Below are positions 1,857 through 23,803 of a DNA stretch of 23,803 bases, piece after piece (the stretch's first letter is position 1; each line of letters opens with the position of its first letter). The notes under the pieces are model-generated. The model was not told the origin of the DNA and searched no databases. It saw only the letters and a program-made list of their open reading frames with translations. The stretch comes from Candidatus Heimdallarchaeota archaeon (lineage in GTDB: Archaea; Asgardarchaeota; Heimdallarchaeia; Heimdallarchaeales; Heimdallarchaeaceae). Made by a program: the position numbers and the translations under genes. The DNA lies in the NCBI GenBank assembly GCA_016840095.1, contig JAEOSZ010000086.1:1-23803 (forward strand). Reading direction: 5' to 3'.

Positions 1857-2435
1857 TTAGAGTTCTCCACGTAAATAATGTTGAATAGCTTCTGTTTGAG
1901 TACTCTTAATAATTTCTCTAATCAGAGTCTGAAATGCTTCTTGAACCTGATCACCAAACTTTGCAGAGGTTTCAATATAAGGTATATTATATCCACTCCA
2001 GTTTGAGAGAGCTTTAGCGTATTTTTCACCATATTCTGCAGGAATAGTGTTGTAAATATGTCCACGAAGATCATTTTTATTTCCAATTAAAACTAGTGGA
2101 ACTTTTCTGTTTTGATTATTTTTCAATAATTCTTTAACCCAATCTGCTAGATGTTCATAGGAATCTGGACGAGTTAAATCAAAAACGAGAAGAGCTCCTC
2201 GAGTACCTTTGTAAAAACCTTCGCGAACAGCAGAAAATCGGGGTTGACCAGCAAGATCCCAAATAATTATAGTAACTTCATATTCATCAACGTGAATAAC
2301 TTTGGTTGCGAAGTCTGCACCTAAAGTCATTTGATAATCGCGATCGAATCCTTCACCTAGGAAATTCTTCCTTAAACTTGTTTTTCCGACCGCCCCTTCA
2401 CCGAGTAGAGTAATTTTGAATTTCTTTGTTTCCAG
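1857..2435 (-). CDS. Rab/Ras-like small GTPase (~192 aa, probable CTG start)
   Basis: G1 GEGAVGKTS is encoded in-frame upstream of the ORF-track ATG at 2330. G2 YQMTLGADF, G3 WDLAGQ, G4 NKND and G5 ETSAK follow. The reading frame is bounded by TAA at 2438-2436, and the first codon after it is CTG at 2435. Confidence 0.9.
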   Translation of the reverse strand: METKKFKITLLGEGAVGKTSLRKNFLGEGFDRDYQMTLGADFATKVIHVDEYEVTIIIWDLAGQPRFSAVREGFYKGTRGALLVFDLTRPDSYEHLADWVKELLKNNQNRKVPLVLIGNKNDLRGHIYNTIPAEYGEKYAKALSNWSGYNIPYIETSAKFGDQVQEAFQTLIREIIKSTQTEAIQHYLRGEL

Positions 2436-18734: not shown

Positions 18735-19481
18735 ATGAAAAGAATTGATTTTAAGAATCAAATTTTCCACAAACACATCTTCCTATTTCTCATATTCTCA
18801 TCTTTTCTATGGATTATTTTGATGGGTTTAGCAATACATCATTATCCTGGTGGAAGCTTTGGAGATCCAACAACTGAAGGATTCAGTTTTTTTTACAATG
18901 CAATAAGTGATCTAGGAAGGTTCATTGCAACAAATGGAGAACCTAATACAGCTTCCAGAGTTCTTTCAATTATAGCTATAAACATTGTGAGTATATGTTC
19001 AATCTTATATTTTTCTTTCATCTGGATTTATTTCCAAGATAGAAAAGCAACAAAGTGGTTAAGTCTTATTGGAAGTGTAAATGGTGTTGCTTGCTCTATT
19101 TGCTATATTTTGTTATCATATGCTGCAGCAGATGCAGTATATCCTTATCATAAAAATCTTCTAACTATTTTCCCAGCATTTTTCTTCATTTCAGTTGTTT
19201 TCTATATGATAGTTTTTTACATGAACAAAGATTTTCCAAGGATAAATGCTGATTCCTATGCAGTTTTAATAGCTGCAGCAGTTGCATTTATAATAACCTT
19301 AATTGTAGGATTTGTTCAAGGTGGAGATTTAGATAGAATAGGTCGTAGAGCAGGTAATACACTATTTAATTTTGTACAGATATTTGTTTATAGTCTTCAA
19401 GGAATTGGAGCATATATTTATATTCAACGTCAAGGCAAAAAAGAACCAGTGTTGGAAGATGCAAAAGAACAAGTTGCTTAA
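18735..19481 (+). CDS. DUF998-like multi-pass membrane protein, paralog 1
   Basis: YPGG...FFYNAISDLGR...NGEPN motif and about 6 TM helices. Confidence 0.75.
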   Translation: MKRIDFKNQIFHKHIFLFLIFSSFLWIILMGLAIHHYPGGSFGDPTTEGFSFFYNAISDLGRFIATNGEPNTASRVLSIIAINIVSICSILYFSFIWIYFQDRKATKWLSLIGSVNGVACSICYILLSYAAADAVYPYHKNLLTIFPAFFFISVVFYMIVFYMNKDFPRINADSYAVLIAAAVAFIITLIVGFVQGGDLDRIGRRAGNTLFNFVQIFVYSLQGIGAYIYIQRQGKKEPVLEDAKEQVA

Positions 19482-20169
19482 ACTAATTTTCATTGGTGTA
19501 GCTGTTGTTTCAATTGTGTCAAATCTACTAATGGGTTTAGCAATCTACTTCTATCCTGGAGGTAATTTTATTGACAATATGGAAGAAGGATTTGGTACTA
19601 TTTATGGTGCTCTGAGTGACTTAGGTAGAGTTACAGCTTACAATGGAGAATCAAACCTTGTTTCAAGAGTTTTGTATACTTCTGCTATCAGTATATTATC
19701 TATTGCTGTAATGATTTTCTATAGCATAATCTGGAAATTTTTCCAAGAAAGGAAATCAACCAAGTGGCTGAGTATTATAGGTTCTTTGTTCGGTGTTACA
19801 CAGAGTATTTTATACATGGTTTTTGCATTTTCTCCAGCAGATATAGCTTTTTCCAGACACATAATGTTAATTTATGTTTCTCCAGGTTTCTTAATAGGGT
19901 CAATTTTAATTTATACAATTGTATTCTTTATAGCTAAAGATTTCCCACGAATTAATGCATATTCATTTTTTGCTTTGATAATAATTGCTGTAATGTTTGC
20001 TACAGCTGTAACTATAGGTTCAATCAGAAAAGATGCAGACATACTTATGTTTCATGCAAGTAGAAGACTTGGACATACATTATTCAATTTCATAGTAACT
20101 TTCAACTATGGAATACAAGCAATTGGTGCACACTTACATGTCAAAAAAACATTTAGAGATAAGAAATAG
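19459..20169 (+). CDS. DUF998-like multi-pass membrane protein, paralog 2
   Basis: YPGG...LSDLGR...NGESN, collinear with paralog 1. Start MQKNK at 19459 inferred from that alignment, giving a 23-nt overlap. Confidence 0.75.
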   Translation: MQKNKLLKLIFIGVAVVSIVSNLLMGLAIYFYPGGNFIDNMEEGFGTIYGALSDLGRVTAYNGESNLVSRVLYTSAISILSIAVMIFYSIIWKFFQERKSTKWLSIIGSLFGVTQSILYMVFAFSPADIAFSRHIMLIYVSPGFLIGSILIYTIVFFIAKDFPRINAYSFFALIIIAVMFATAVTIGSIRKDADILMFHASRRLGHTLFNFIVTFNYGIQAIGAHLHVKKTFRDKK

Positions 20170-20207: not shown

Positions 20208-20876
20208 ATGACCTTAGCACTAGTTGAAATGCATAGCAACGAGAAAGACATTAACACGATAATAGCTTTCATCAAAGAACACATTCCCTATTACGGTTAT
20301 AAAATAAGAAGTTCCAAAGATGAATTTCTAGAGCATTATTCCCTGCGAATATCTAAGGAGATGTATCGCTGGGTCATCAATTTTGATATAAGGCTGGATA
20401 GAACAGGAAATCTAGTAAAAGCAGAAATTTCTAGGCTAGAACCTTTTATATTAGATAAGAAAATCATAGAACAATTCCAAAGAAATCAAAATCGAAATCA
20501 AGATAGACCTTCAATGTCTTTATGGAGCATCTTATGGAGAAGCTGGTGGATCTACTTAATTGTCAGTTTTGTTGGGTCAATGATATTAAGTTTCTTTCCA
20601 TGGGTAAACAGATCAATACAAAATTTTGGTTATGCTTTAATGGGTATACTAGGGTTTGTTATCCTTGTATTTGTTGCAGGCATATTTTATAATCGTCACC
20701 AAAGAAATAATGAATTGGAAAAGGTCCAATCACTAAAGAAGGATTTAGAACAAATAATTGAAAGCATTGATGACACAAAACCAAAAGAAAATATCATTTG
20801 CTGGTCATGTTTTGTAGAAGTACTACCTGAGAAAAGAAAGTGTCCAAACTGTGGAGTTGACCTAGTAAAAGTCTAG
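20208..20876 (+). CDS. Two-TM membrane protein with C-terminal zinc ribbon
   Basis: Soluble N-domain, two hydrophobic helices, coiled-coil-like stretch and CWSC-x9-CPNC. Confidence 0.75.
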   Translation: MTLALVEMHSNEKDINTIIAFIKEHIPYYGYKIRSSKDEFLEHYSLRISKEMYRWVINFDIRLDRTGNLVKAEISRLEPFILDKKIIEQFQRNQNRNQDRPSMSLWSILWRSWWIYLIVSFVGSMILSFFPWVNRSIQNFGYALMGILGFVILVFVAGIFYNRHQRNNELEKVQSLKKDLEQIIESIDDTKPKENIICWSCFVEVLPEKRKCPNCGVDLVKV

Positions 20877-20917: not shown

Positions 20918-21901
20918 TTAGTACTTGTATCCACAGTTTCCACAGAACTTTGCGTCAGGTGAGTTTTTAGCGCCACATTCAGTACAGAATTTAATTTTGC
21001 CACTTTTCTCATCGTCTGTAGGATCTCCACAATGAGCACAGAATTTTGCAGCAGGTGAAACTTTGTTCTTACATTGATTACATTCAATGAAAGCAGCTTC
21101 AACTTCACCTTTCTTCTCAAGTTTATCAGCTTGTTTTATTTCGCCTTTTGAGAAGAGATTGTTTATCATTACTGCACCACCAAGACCACCACCGCCTTCA
21201 GGCATTTTCTCAACTACTTTTGCCATACCAGCATATTGTTGGACTTGACCAGCGGATACTCCAGATCTCATCCAGAACAATCGATCTCTGTATTCTGGAG
21301 TTGTATCGATTCCTCCGAATTTAAGAGTCTTGAGTTTTATTCCGAATTCTTTGAGATCACCTGCAACTTCACCTTCTATGAAGTCTGATGTTTTACCCAA
21401 GTTCGACATCACATCTACAATACTTTTTTCTGAAAGTTTGCTTATAACTGATTCAACTATAAAAGTTCTGAAGAATTCATTAAAAGCTGCTGTAGTGTAA
21501 ATGTTTCTGTTCCCTGCAATTTCGAAAACAAACTTTTGGATATCATCAATCTTATAGAAATAATCTCCAAAGAATTGCAATGGTGCTAATTCTTGTGTTT
21601 GTGATCGCCCTCCGAATTTTCCTTGAAAGTCTGCGAGATTGACAAAAATCACTTGACAATTGAATGGGCTTTTGTCAAATCCTACTATTCTTGACAAGAA
21701 AGTTGTCAAAAGTGGAATATTCTTAGTTTTCATGAAATGTCTTCCACCCTTGAGTACATCATAAACGACTGAATCTTTTATGAATACTGCAACTTGGTTT
21801 GGAAGGACATTAACCTGATCTCCCCAATTGATAGTATCACGAGGATGTCTGTACATTATTTCGTCGCCTCTTCCTAGGGGCCACTCCAATACTTCTACCA
21901 T
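20918..21901 (-). CDS. SPFH/Band-7 domain protein (YdjI / 'virion core protein' subtype) with C-terminal double zinc ribbon
   Basis: INWGDQVNVLPNQVAVFIKD...GGRHFMKTKNIPLL...SPFNCQVIFVN...FGDYFYKIDD...FGIKL, a Gly-rich linker, then CNQC/CAHC/CTEC/CGNC. GAGGT SD upstream. Confidence 0.88.
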   Translation of the reverse strand: MVEVLEWPLGRGDEIMYRHPRDTINWGDQVNVLPNQVAVFIKDSVVYDVLKGGRHFMKTKNIPLLTTFLSRIVGFDKSPFNCQVIFVNLADFQGKFGGRSQTQELAPLQFFGDYFYKIDDIQKFVFEIAGNRNIYTTAAFNEFFRTFIVESVISKLSEKSIVDVMSNLGKTSDFIEGEVAGDLKEFGIKLKTLKFGGIDTTPEYRDRLFWMRSGVSAGQVQQYAGMAKVVEKMPEGGGGLGGAVMINNLFSKGEIKQADKLEKKGEVEAAFIECNQCKNKVSPAAKFCAHCGDPTDDEKSGKIKFCTECGAKNSPDAKFCGNCGYKY

Positions 21902-22055: not shown

Positions 22056-23639
22056 TTACTCTTTCAGATTTGTGTCCTTTCCACAAAATGTGCAAAACTT
22101 TGATACAGATGAAATCTTCTTTTTGCAGTTGTTACATGTAGAGTATTCTGAGTCTTTTTCTGGTTTTTCTTGTTCCTCTATATCTTCTTTACTAACCTCA
22201 TCAGGCTGCTCGATTTCTTCCAATTTATCAAGATTCACTCCTTCAGATACTGTTAACTCATCCTTTGGTTTAGTTATCTCTGTTTCCACATTTTCTATTA
22301 AAGTTGGTTTAAACTCTTCAATTTCGATTTTCTTTATTTCTTCTTTGCAAACTGGGCATTTAGGATTAAACCTTATCCAAGTTTCTAGATGATTTACATG
22401 ATAGATATTATCACATGAATTACATCTTGAAATAGCTACTTCTCTCTCAACTATATTGTTACAGATTAAACATCTAGGAATATCTTTCTTACAATGCCAA
22501 CATTCTCGGTTAGTAATTGGGTTTGGTCTAAGGCAATTTGGGCATCTTGTCAATCCTTTTCTACGCAATAGATTCTTCGTTTTTTGACCAGTTTTGTACA
22601 GAAATATCCTTGCTTTACTTACATCTTCTCCAAAATGTTCTCTCCAATCTAATATTGGTTTAACAATTGCTACACCACAGACCAAAGCTGACATTGCAAT
22701 TCTTATTTCCATTTCTAACATATTCAAGAGAAAGAACAAAGCAATTCCAAAAGCAAACAATATTAGATAATTTCTAACAAATATGAATTTAAAAGCATCA
22801 CCTATCCAAGTAAAAATTGCTTTCAACTTAGCTTTGACCCATCTAACCATTCGCTTGAATCGTTCAGGATCATAGAGCATCTTAGCTAATTTGACTATCA
22901 GACTAGGTAGATATTTAATACCTCTCCAAAGAGATTGGAAGAAAGTAGCAATTATTTTACCTATATCCTTCATTATCTCTGCTAGCTCTTCTCTTAGGTG
23001 TATTATGATATTAATCAGTATCAACCCCCCACCTATCAAATAGAAGTATACAGCATCAATCCAAATAAAAACATCTAGAGCTGTAAGAACTATAACAGCT
23101 ATCCCTGCAAGAGTTAACAGATTCCAAGGAGATAGAATTAATTTCCACTTAATCCTCTTTAACATCCTTTTCAATGATTCACCGATTCTTCGGAATAATT
23201 CCAGTATCTTTTCATTCAGATCATATGCTTCAATGAAAAATCCAAAAATAATCAGTAGAACTCCAAAAGCCATTATTATGAAGAAAACATAATCCTTAAC
23301 TGTAAAATCTTCATTTCCAAAAGTGAATATGTAAATCAATGTAGGTAGAGCTAACATGAAGAATCCAAGATAAGCTGTTATTGCTCCTAGAACGAAATAT
23401 TCTATTCCTTTTCTCTTAATTCGTCGAAGAATCAAAGCAAAGAAGAGAATTAAGAAACCAGAAACCAGTACTCCTATGAATAGCATGAACAGCCATTCTT
23501 TTGTCTCATACATTCCAGTAATTCCTGTGACCATAGTGCCAAGTAGACCAATTATACCGACAATGAGTCCTATCCACATTGTAGTAAGTGCTGGAGTTTT
23601 TTGTTCTATGAGTTCCTTATCAAGATGTTTCTCGTTCAT
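22056..23639 (-). CDS. Multi-pass membrane protein with zinc ribbon + RING finger + zinc ribbon (putative membrane E3 ubiquitin ligase)
   Basis: About 8 hydrophobic helices, CPNC...CWHC, RING CLIC-x12-CNSC-x4-H-x2-H-LETW-x6-CPVC, acidic linker, CNNC...FCTFCG. ATG at 23639 has GGAGGTG upstream and overlaps the upstream stop (ATGA). Confidence 0.82.
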   Translation of the reverse strand: MNEKHLDKELIEQKTPALTTMWIGLIVGIIGLLGTMVTGITGMYETKEWLFMLFIGVLVSGFLILFFALILRRIKRKGIEYFVLGAITAYLGFFMLALPTLIYIFTFGNEDFTVKDYVFFIIMAFGVLLIIFGFFIEAYDLNEKILELFRRIGESLKRMLKRIKWKLILSPWNLLTLAGIAVIVLTALDVFIWIDAVYFYLIGGGLILINIIIHLREELAEIMKDIGKIIATFFQSLWRGIKYLPSLIVKLAKMLYDPERFKRMVRWVKAKLKAIFTWIGDAFKFIFVRNYLILFAFGIALFFLLNMLEMEIRIAMSALVCGVAIVKPILDWREHFGEDVSKARIFLYKTGQKTKNLLRRKGLTRCPNCLRPNPITNRECWHCKKDIPRCLICNNIVEREVAISRCNSCDNIYHVNHLETWIRFNPKCPVCKEEIKKIEIEEFKPTLIENVETEITKPKDELTVSEGVNLDKLEEIEQPDEVSKEDIEEQEKPEKDSEYSTCNNCKKKISSVSKFCTFCGKDTNLKE

Positions 23640-23803
23640 TTCTTCCACACCTCCTCTATCTGGTCTGCAAGTTTTTTAGACCTACCAGTTCTTAGTTTCT
23701 TAAGCTCTCCACGCCATCGTAGAATTATTATCGCCACAGAAGCCATAACTATCAATCCTCCTCCTATAAACATCATAATTGGTACGGAAAATCCATCTGG
23801 AAA
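23636..23803 (-). CDS. 3' end of an upstream membrane protein (partial; not in the ORF track)
   Basis: Open frame from the window end: FPDGFSVPIMMFIGGGLIVMASVAIIILRWRGELKKLRTGRSKKLADQIEEVWKK*, with TGA at 23638-23636 overlapping the next ATG. Confidence 0.75.
   Translation of the reverse strand, partial: FPDGFSVPIMMFIGGGLIVMASVAIIILRWRGELKKLRTGRSKKLADQIEEVWKK

Follow-up and report, generated by a model that had tools for sequence, protein, structure and literature searches.

The locus and its RING gene

The window analysed here is a stretch of 23,803 nucleotides (nt) of Candidatus Heimdallarchaeota archaeon, contig JAEOSZ010000086.1 (our contig C77), from a 3.44-Mb metagenome-assembled genome that is 89% complete. 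Near its right-hand end lies a gene for a multi-pass membrane protein that carries a zinc ribbon and a RING finger (the RING protein), preceded by the 3' end of a gene for a second, larger membrane protein (the partner). We describe the two genes and the family to which the RING protein belongs, and we propose, with modest confidence, that the two proteins form a candidate membrane-bound ubiquitin ligase. The features of the pair, all on the minus strand, are as follows.

22056-23639, minus strand: coding sequence of the RING membrane protein in the open reading frame (ORF) list, 527 amino acids (aa) from its ATG, stop codon at 22056-22058
23648-23654, minus strand: ribosome-binding site GGAGGTG, inside the 3' end of the upstream gene and 8 nt before the ATG
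22650-23573, minus strand: membrane region, residues 26-333, from hydropathy, DSSP assignments of the models and charge bias in 28 sequences
22590-22661, minus strand: juxtamembrane helix after the last hairpin, highly conserved in the family alignment
22491-22544, minus strand: zinc ribbon 1, C369-x2-C372-x10-C383-x2-C386, invariant across the family
22347-22472, minus strand: RING finger, residues 393-434, C4-H2-C2, with I395, W424 and P432 invariant and K435 next
22149-22343, minus strand: acidic linker, residues 436-500, with a model confidence (pLDDT) of 29-44 for residues 451-500; short or absent in most relatives
22077-22148, minus strand: zinc ribbon 2, C505/C508/C519/C522, matching Pfam Zn_ribbon_3 and Zn_Ribbon_1 below cut-off
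23636-23803, minus strand: last 55 codons of the upstream partner gene, which is cut by the contig end and whose stop overlaps the start of the RING gene

The longest ORF at this position, 22056-23648 on the minus strand, begins with GTG and encodes 530 aa. The likely start is the ATG at 23639-23637, which gives 527 aa, because this ATG overlaps the TGA of the upstream gene as ATGA, lies 8 nt behind GGAGGTG and corresponds to the start of most orthologues. Residues are numbered here on the 530-aa translation from the GTG; three must be subtracted for the ATG start. The gene is real and conserved, with 32 homologues of its product at E<=1e-132, and the coordinates 22056-23639 given in the initial annotation agree with the ATG-initiated ORF.

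The ribbon-RING module and the other RINGs of the genome

The RING finger reads C393-x2-C396-x12-C409-x2-C412-x4-H417-x2-H420-x3-W424-x6-C431-P432-x-C434. The eight ligands (C393, C396, C409, C412, H417, H420, C431 and C434) are invariant in all 28 of the 28 sequences in the family alignment, to which the ligand counts here and the charge counts below refer, and so are P391, I395, N414, L421, W424, R426 and P432. Full-length homologues with 22-25% identity, which belong to a different family within the order, keep the same ligand pattern. As judged from the alignment, this conservation of the ligands far exceeds chance.

Comparisons of sequences and of models indicate that the domain is a genuine RING-type finger. 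A family profile covering the ribbon and the RING, searched against the sequences of the Protein Data Bank (PDB), matched RNF165/Arkadia best (E 1.9e-9), followed by EL5, RLIM and RNF38, and it also matched listerin (E 2.7e-5), synoviolin (E 3e-5) and AMFR (E 1.4e-4). The Pfam family zf-RING_2 (PF13639) matches all 12 of the 12 family members scanned at E<=0.01, the best at 7.8e-9, and PF13639 is annotated on many orthologues. The RING region of the AlphaFold2 model has a pLDDT of 81-85. Foldseek superposes the modelled RING on RNF165 chains at 1.3-2.0 Å over 46-51 columns (1.3 Å over 46 columns for 5d0m_C; TM-score 0.83 for 5ulk_C) and on gp78 (2lxh) at 2.6 Å over 50 columns, the fold evidence in each case being that of a predicted model.

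The arrangement of the ligands departs from that of a canonical RING-H2 finger. In a hidden Markov model alignment to Arkadia, C412 corresponds to ligand 3, and H417 and H420 correspond to ligands 5 and 6, while the position of the canonical ligand-4 His is taken by the invariant Asn414. Because Asn414 occupies that position, C409, three residues before C412, is the probable fourth ligand. The zinc sites of the RING are probably one Cys2His2 and one Cys4. Residue 435, which follows the last Cys and corresponds to the linchpin of other RINGs, is Lys in 17 and His in 11 of the 28 sequences.

Most of what the initial annotation said about this domain is borne out. It placed a RING at 22347-22472, and both the position and the ligand spacing that it gave match residues 393-434 exactly; its call of a RING is supported by the Arkadia profile match, the model superpositions and the zf-RING_2 matches given above. 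The resemblance that it saw to listerin is upheld at the profile level. The RING protein shares with the C4HC3 RING of Listerin/Ltn1 the spacing CxxC-x4-H-x2-(C/H)-L-x2-W-x6-CPxC, and it differs in having His as the sixth ligand and in the remainder of the protein, which is unrelated. The description of the RING as flanked by zinc ribbons stands for the N-terminal ribbon, which is universal in the family, and fails as a general statement for the C-terminal one, since zinc ribbon 2 and the acidic linker are present in only 4 of the 28 aligned sequences and are thus specific to a sub-clade. Zinc ribbon 2 and the ribbon of the SPFH neighbour described below are 37.5% identical over 56 aa, and in a relative (locus L047) the corresponding identity is 54% over 50 aa. 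These similarities suggest a local duplication of the tail of the SPFH neighbour onto the RING gene.

The word 'atypical', which was applied to the C4-H-H-C2 pattern, did not survive a comparison with the rest of the genome. There are 17 zf-RING_2 matches in the genome (loci L007-L023), 11 of them above the Pfam cut-off, and most of the 17 carry His at the sixth ligand (H-x2-H-[LMI]-x2-W). The pattern CxxC-x4-H-x2-H-[LMI]-x2-W occurs in six of them, including the window protein, and CC-x4-H-x2-H occurs in five more. At least one hydrophobic helix is present in 12 of the 17 frames, as counted crudely from hydropathy.

The genome also encodes the rest of a ubiquitin cascade, that is, an enzyme that activates ubiquitin (E1), one that conjugates it (E2) and ubiquitin itself, as assigned by Pfam: four UQ_con, two ubiquitin and three ThiF matches are above the cut-offs, and there are ubiquitin operons on contigs C118 and C159. 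The operon on contig C159 (L060:1866-7662) contains an E2 (UQ_con, 90.6 bits), a JAB deubiquitinase, a ubiquitin-like protein and a ThiF-type E1, together with a 370-aa ORF (L060:3204-4316) and a 195-aa membrane ORF. The product of the 370-aa ORF has about six hydrophobic helices and a tail that reads CIIC...CPNC-x4-H-x2-E...W...CARC and scores 20.4 bits against zf-RING_2, below the cut-off. With this RING-like tail and these helices, the operon's own candidate for a ubiquitin ligase (E3) is a polytopic membrane protein.

Another protein of the genome, encoded on contig C45 (L059:876-2828, minus strand) and about 650-690 aa long, ends in a ribbon plus RING (zf-RING_2, 27.8 bits); at the N-terminus, residues 2-37 match part of a PCI domain (28.8 bits). 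In a phylum-wide search, its ribbon-RING module was matched in many Asgard genomes by recurring proteins of 686-699 aa.

Soluble RING ligases from archaea have already been reconstituted. In the small RING finger protein (srfp) encoded in the ubiquitin operon of Caldiarchaeum subterraneum, the substitutions I30Q, W58A and R69A impair ubiquitylation; ligands C3 and H4 lie at shifted positions, and the second zinc may be bound by an additional Cys, 'C3B' (PMC5654768). An Asgard cascade of E1, E2 and RING is active in vitro, with a Helarchaeia RING E3 (bioRxiv 10.1101/2023.07.25.550441). The three positions that matter in srfp are kept in the RING protein as I395, W424 and K435: the offset from Trp to Arg/Lys is 11 in both, and that from Ile to Trp is 28 in srfp and 29 here. 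The RING protein also has an extra Cys near the third ligand, C409. All three are prokaryotic RINGs, and those of srfp and the Helarchaeia E3 work with eukaryote-like E1, E2 and ubiquitin. The likeness ends there, for srfp and the Helarchaeia E3 are small, soluble and encoded inside ubiquitin operons, whereas the RING protein has 527 aa and eight helices, a zinc ribbon before its RING and a large, coupled membrane partner, and its gene lies outside the ubiquitin operons.

The membrane region, the coupled partner and the neighbours

Hydropathy gives eight hydrophobic segments before the RING, at residues 26-44, 56-74, 90-108, 121-139, 177-195, 200-218, 295-313 and 315-333. The same eight helices appear in the AlphaFold2 models, paired as four hairpins with short outer loops, and amphipathic helices rich in Lys and Arg (146-171 and 219-291) separate membrane hairpins. 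In hairpins 5-6 and 7-8 the first helix is only 14 residues long in the model, and these two hairpins may cross the membrane or merely dip into it. Whether the hairpins span or dip, the hydrophobic segments come in pairs, so both termini lie on one side. Which side this is can be read from the charges. The mean number of Lys plus Arg over the 28 sequences is 5.0, 8.3, 15.1 and 9.4 in loops 2-3, 4-5 and 6-7 and the segment after helix 8, and 1.2, 0.8, 0.2 and 0.6 in loops 1-2, 3-4, 5-6 and 7-8. This strong, family-wide positive-inside bias puts the zinc domains in the cytoplasm, and by the same sequence criterion both ends of the protein are cytoplasmic.

The last hairpin leads into the juxtamembrane helix, which reads KPILDWREHFGE...LYKT and in which K330, P331, W335, R336, G340, E341, S344, R347, L350, Y351 and K352 are invariant in the 28-sequence alignment. 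The zinc ribbon stands directly before the RING on a membrane anchor of four hairpins.

Upstream of the RING gene there is always a second membrane protein. At 11 of the 11 loci with a full-length homologue, a polytopic protein of 600-900 aa is encoded immediately upstream (one of them is truncated to 365 aa by the end of its contig), and at all 11 the stop codon of the partner overlaps the start of the RING gene by 1-4 nt, including loci whose RING proteins are only 22-25% identical. Wherever a member of the family is found, its gene is translationally coupled to that of a repeat membrane protein. A crude count over the 11 loci gives the partners from 9 to more than 17 hydrophobic helices. 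The partners of near relatives are built of repeats of about 100 residues (self-comparison with hhalign, E 7e-47); in the window's fragment (23636-23803), in L047:3085-5661 and in their relatives, Ile, Leu, Phe and Val make up about 47% of the residues, and there are motifs such as HWW.I.KE.LRL and SRK.VL. Near and distant partners match each other in hhalign with a probability of 44% over the C-terminal 150 residues, and what is conserved between them is only position, size and coupling. The membrane part of the RING protein matches the partner with an hhalign probability of 36%, or at best 54% in the region of the last hairpin; that the one is a paralogue of the other is suggested by these sequence matches but not established.

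The distribution of the family is narrow. The window's genus is represented by 24 other genomes, 19 of which have a full-length homologue; such homologues are also present in three further genera of its family, and two more families within the order have full-length proteins that are 22-27% identical. A full-length homologue is absent from two closed sister-genus genomes, and the other Asgard classes gave matches only at the level of ribbon plus RING in a phylum-wide search. A sister-genus genome (G011:C1:166342-166878; L058:6307-6912, minus strand) has only a 201-aa version, consisting of the last hairpin, the ribbon and the RING, which is 44% identical to residues 268-446 and has no large polytopic ORF directly upstream. 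This protein may be a truncated or minimal form.

The membrane part resembles little else. Neither for residues 1-365 nor for the upstream partner was there anything credible in Pfam or NCBIfam; the sole match across the two was to SLATT_5, which scored 16.4 bits where the cut-off is 60. Nothing usable came from the ESM Atlas for residues 4-365 or for the partner. A profile of the membrane part had no hits at E<=10 among the PDB sequences, although synoviolin chains are in that set, and it found 69 proteins among 1.84 billion representatives, of which about 35 are full-length family members. The other matches, with lengths of 370-1412 aa, share the first four helices only, and 7 of the 10 such four-helix-only relatives scanned with Pfam end in a zinc ribbon or a ribbon plus RING. 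All of the matches whose source is named are from Asgard archaea, with Hermod-, Hod- and Promethearchaeota labels.

Comparisons of the predicted fold gave a similar picture, and they are limited by the low global confidence of the two models (predicted template modelling score, pTM, 0.35 and 0.37, the latter for the membrane part). With the whole model, Foldseek returned matches to the ribbon and RING only; with the membrane part alone the matches were channels and G-protein-coupled receptors with TM-scores of at most 0.27. In a wide VIA search the best Z was 9.6 for the whole model and 9.4 for the membrane part, with hairpins, BAR domains and designed bundles as the matches. The HRD1 chain 9uav_B appeared at Z 8.6, with a root-mean-square deviation of 6.0 Å over 126 aligned residues, 6% identity and helices 1-4 only; this Z ties with designed bundles and BAR domains and is below VIA's stated noise for helical proteins. 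No match of the membrane part in these fold comparisons rose above the background that helical proteins are expected to give.

For the membrane region, the initial annotation had counted about eight transmembrane helices before the RING, and hydropathy and the AlphaFold2 secondary structure concur on eight; the conserved positive-inside bias likewise fits a cytoplasmic rather than an extracellular RING. The layout likened there to Hrd1/gp78 holds for the order of the domains and not for the membrane part, which has no sequence match to those proteins and a fold similarity at noise level. A Foldseek comparison of this region with Hrd1, which had been proposed, led elsewhere: the best hit had E 0.23 and was not Hrd1.

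Downstream of the RING gene lies the neighbour mentioned above.

20918-21901, minus strand: SPFH/Band-7 protein with a double zinc ribbon (Pfam), a genus-level neighbour of the RING gene

The gap between the two genes is 154 nt and contains TATA-like AT boxes. Within the genus, copies of the SPFH/zinc-ribbon gene share 84-91% identity. At two of six genus loci the gene is shifted by 1.8-2.7 kb, and near the distant homologues it is absent. A three-gene module including SPFH and resembling the machinery for degradation associated with the endoplasmic reticulum (ERAD) was considered and rejected as a conserved unit, SPFH being a neighbour in the window's genus only.

Convergent with the SPFH gene is a 222-aa ORF (20208-20876, plus strand) with hydrophobic helices in mid-protein and a C-terminal CxxC-x13-CxxC zinc ribbon, a further ribbon-tailed membrane protein at the same locus. 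Its product matched no family, and none of the related loci examined had a homologue. Two ORFs on the plus strand at 18735-19481 and 19372-20169 are tandem paralogues (44% identity over 236 aa), and one of them has a weak Frag1/DRAM/Sfk1 match of 25.6 bits, below the cut-off. They overlap by 110 nt, so that the second probably begins later than its TTG. Elsewhere in the window there are genes for a Ras-family GTPase, for an XPD-type helicase and for a prolyl-tRNA synthetase whose C-terminal domain is ProRS-C_1, all in keeping with an Asgard archaeon; the source names of the nearest homologues of the RING protein point to the Heimdallarchaeaceae. In the ORF of the GTPase (1857-2330, minus strand), the match to the Pfam Ras profile begins with residue 2 aligned to position 31 of the profile; the ATG start therefore misses the P-loop region, and the true start must be further upstream. 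A Pfam scan of the 23.8-kb window found no E1, E2 or ubiquitin gene.

A candidate membrane-bound ubiquitin ligase

Our preferred interpretation, to which we incline without great assurance, is that the RING membrane protein and its partner are a membrane-bound ubiquitin ligase, in which the RING would recruit E2 charged with ubiquitin (E2~Ub). We hold with about the same limited confidence that the protein is the RING-bearing subunit in a membrane complex of two proteins that is restricted to a single order of the Heimdallarchaeia. The RING protein and the repeat membrane partner would assemble in a fixed proportion, and the RING would use the customary Ile/Trp/Pro surface to bind an Asgard E2 charged with ubiquitin, Lys435 being at the linchpin position. 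Ubiquitin might then move to membrane-proximal lysines of the partner, of the RING protein itself or of client membrane proteins, and it would mark these targets for extraction, degradation or sorting. The protein would work on the same principle as the polytopic RING ligases of eukaryotes, with a membrane domain that, as far as the tools can tell, is unrelated to theirs.

Several observations weigh against this interpretation. The window protein scores 21.7 bits against zf-RING_2 as a whole and 26.6 bits for the domain alone, compared with a cut-off of 27.3. Its fourth ligand is a Cys three residues ahead of the usual third, with the canonical His replaced by the invariant Asn414, and 11 of the 28 relatives have His at the linchpin. 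As noted above, the gene is outside the ubiquitin operons. Finally, the C-terminal modules of WDR19, MIOS, WDR24 and WDR59 are further matches of the ribbon-RING tandem, and in the yeast SEA complex the RINGs heterodimerise and 'clearly play a structural role' (PMC9646525).

The last two points lead to the alternative that survives best, which is that the ribbon and RING are an assembly domain and not a catalyst. They would link membrane subunits by RING-RING or ribbon-RING contacts, among copies of the protein or with loops of the partner, and the function (membrane shaping, scaffolding or transport) would reside in the hairpin-repeat parts. Positions 3-75 of the family profile, that is, the whole module, match WDR19/IFT144 (E 1.4e-5), MIOS (3.5e-5), WDR24 (4.5e-5), WDR59 (1.8e-4) and IFT122B (4.6e-4). 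Pfam zinc_ribbon_16 (PF17034) is found in 4 and zf-RING_16 (PF17120) in 7 of the 12 family members scanned, and the top places in Foldseek include chains of IFT-A, GATOR2 and the SEA complex that cover both ribbon and RING (for example, WDR19 chain 8fh3_C at 2.9 Å over 83 columns). As in GATOR2/SEACAT (WDR24, WDR59 and MIOS; Sea2-4) and IFT-A (WDR19/IFT144 and IFT122), a CxxC...CxxC ribbon directly precedes the RING. The structural role of the SEA-complex RINGs, the obligate coupled partner and the position of the gene outside the ubiquitin operons all fit such a domain. On the other hand, the catalytic RING-H2 ligases match better by four orders of magnitude, and the residues needed for catalysis by an archaeal RING E3 are retained. 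A structural role is also compatible with ligase activity: WDR24 itself has been proposed as an E3 ligase, although the proposal is disputed. We consider a purely structural module unlikely, if still a serious competitor.

It would be more surprising if the zinc modules bound nucleic acid, a small ligand or a partner other than ubiquitin, making the protein a membrane-tethered regulator or sensor. Ribbon tails are common on membrane proteins of the locus and the genome, among them the products of the ORFs at 20208-20876 and 20918-21901, and distant relatives with the N-terminal four-helix module end in ribbons without a RING. However, the finger is RING-like both in sequence and in the model, and its invariant surface is of the E2-binding type and not a basic one that would bind nucleic acid, so we rate this alternative as quite improbable.

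Like Hrd1/synoviolin and gp78/AMFR, the RING protein does carry a cytoplasmic RING, one from the RING-H2 neighbourhood in sequence, behind a multi-pass membrane part, and presumably it shares with them the logic of ubiquitylation at the membrane surface. It differs from them in its C4H2C2 instead of C3H2C3 ligands, in its obligate partner, in the helix of about 35 residues and the zinc ribbon between helix 8 and the RING, and in a membrane part without detectable homology to theirs. No DER1 (PF04511) match was found at E<=0.01 in the 89%-complete genome, but the control genomes gave none either, so that this search lacks a positive control. That the protein is a true homologue, an archaeal forerunner of the ERAD ligase and retrotranslocon with its helices as a protein-conducting path and its RING marking the emerging substrates, is barely credible, because the shared domain order, the synoviolin and AMFR matches and the appearance of 9uav_B in the wide fold search are outweighed by the profile that found no PDB sequence and 69 proteins, the named ones Asgard, by the Foldseek and HRD1 comparisons at noise level (on a membrane model that is itself weak), by the intervening helix and ribbon, by the lack of a DER1 match, with the caveat just given, and by the restriction of the family to one order.

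Membrane-built ubiquitin ligases, which are considered eukaryotic, underlie ERAD, the down-regulation of receptors and the quality control of organelles. Archaeal RING E3s and eukaryotic polytopic RING ligases are both already known; what is new is a multi-pass archaeal RING protein with a membrane domain of its own and an obligate partner. No description of a multi-pass membrane RING protein of Asgard archaea was found in the literature searched.

A bolder extension of the ligase interpretation, which we think decidedly unlikely, is that the coupled pair is an Asgard-specific membrane ubiquitin-ligase machine, made up of a hairpin-repeat scaffold and a RING subunit, whose ribbon and RING represent the prokaryotic stock of the C-terminal ZnF-RING modules in eukaryotic protocoatomer-derived complexes, by which we mean GATOR2/SEACAT, IFT-A and perhaps HOPS/CORVET. 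In GATOR2/SEACAT and IFT-A the proteins are soluble and the module comes after a beta-propeller and an alpha-solenoid, whereas here it follows a membrane domain; residues 1-365 consist only of membrane and amphipathic helices, and no protocoatomer architecture of beta-propeller and alpha-solenoid is present. If this extension were true, membrane-surface ubiquitylation would have a common origin in archaea with the coat-type RING junctions.

The value of the finding is limited in that the family occurs in one order of the Heimdallarchaeia, its membrane domain has no eukaryotic counterpart and its role as a ligase is predicted. Nevertheless, the link of the ribbon and RING to the tails of GATOR2 and IFT-A proteins bears on the source of those eukaryotic modules, and the conserved, coupled pair is a concrete and expressible candidate for asking whether membrane ubiquitylation predates the eukaryotes.

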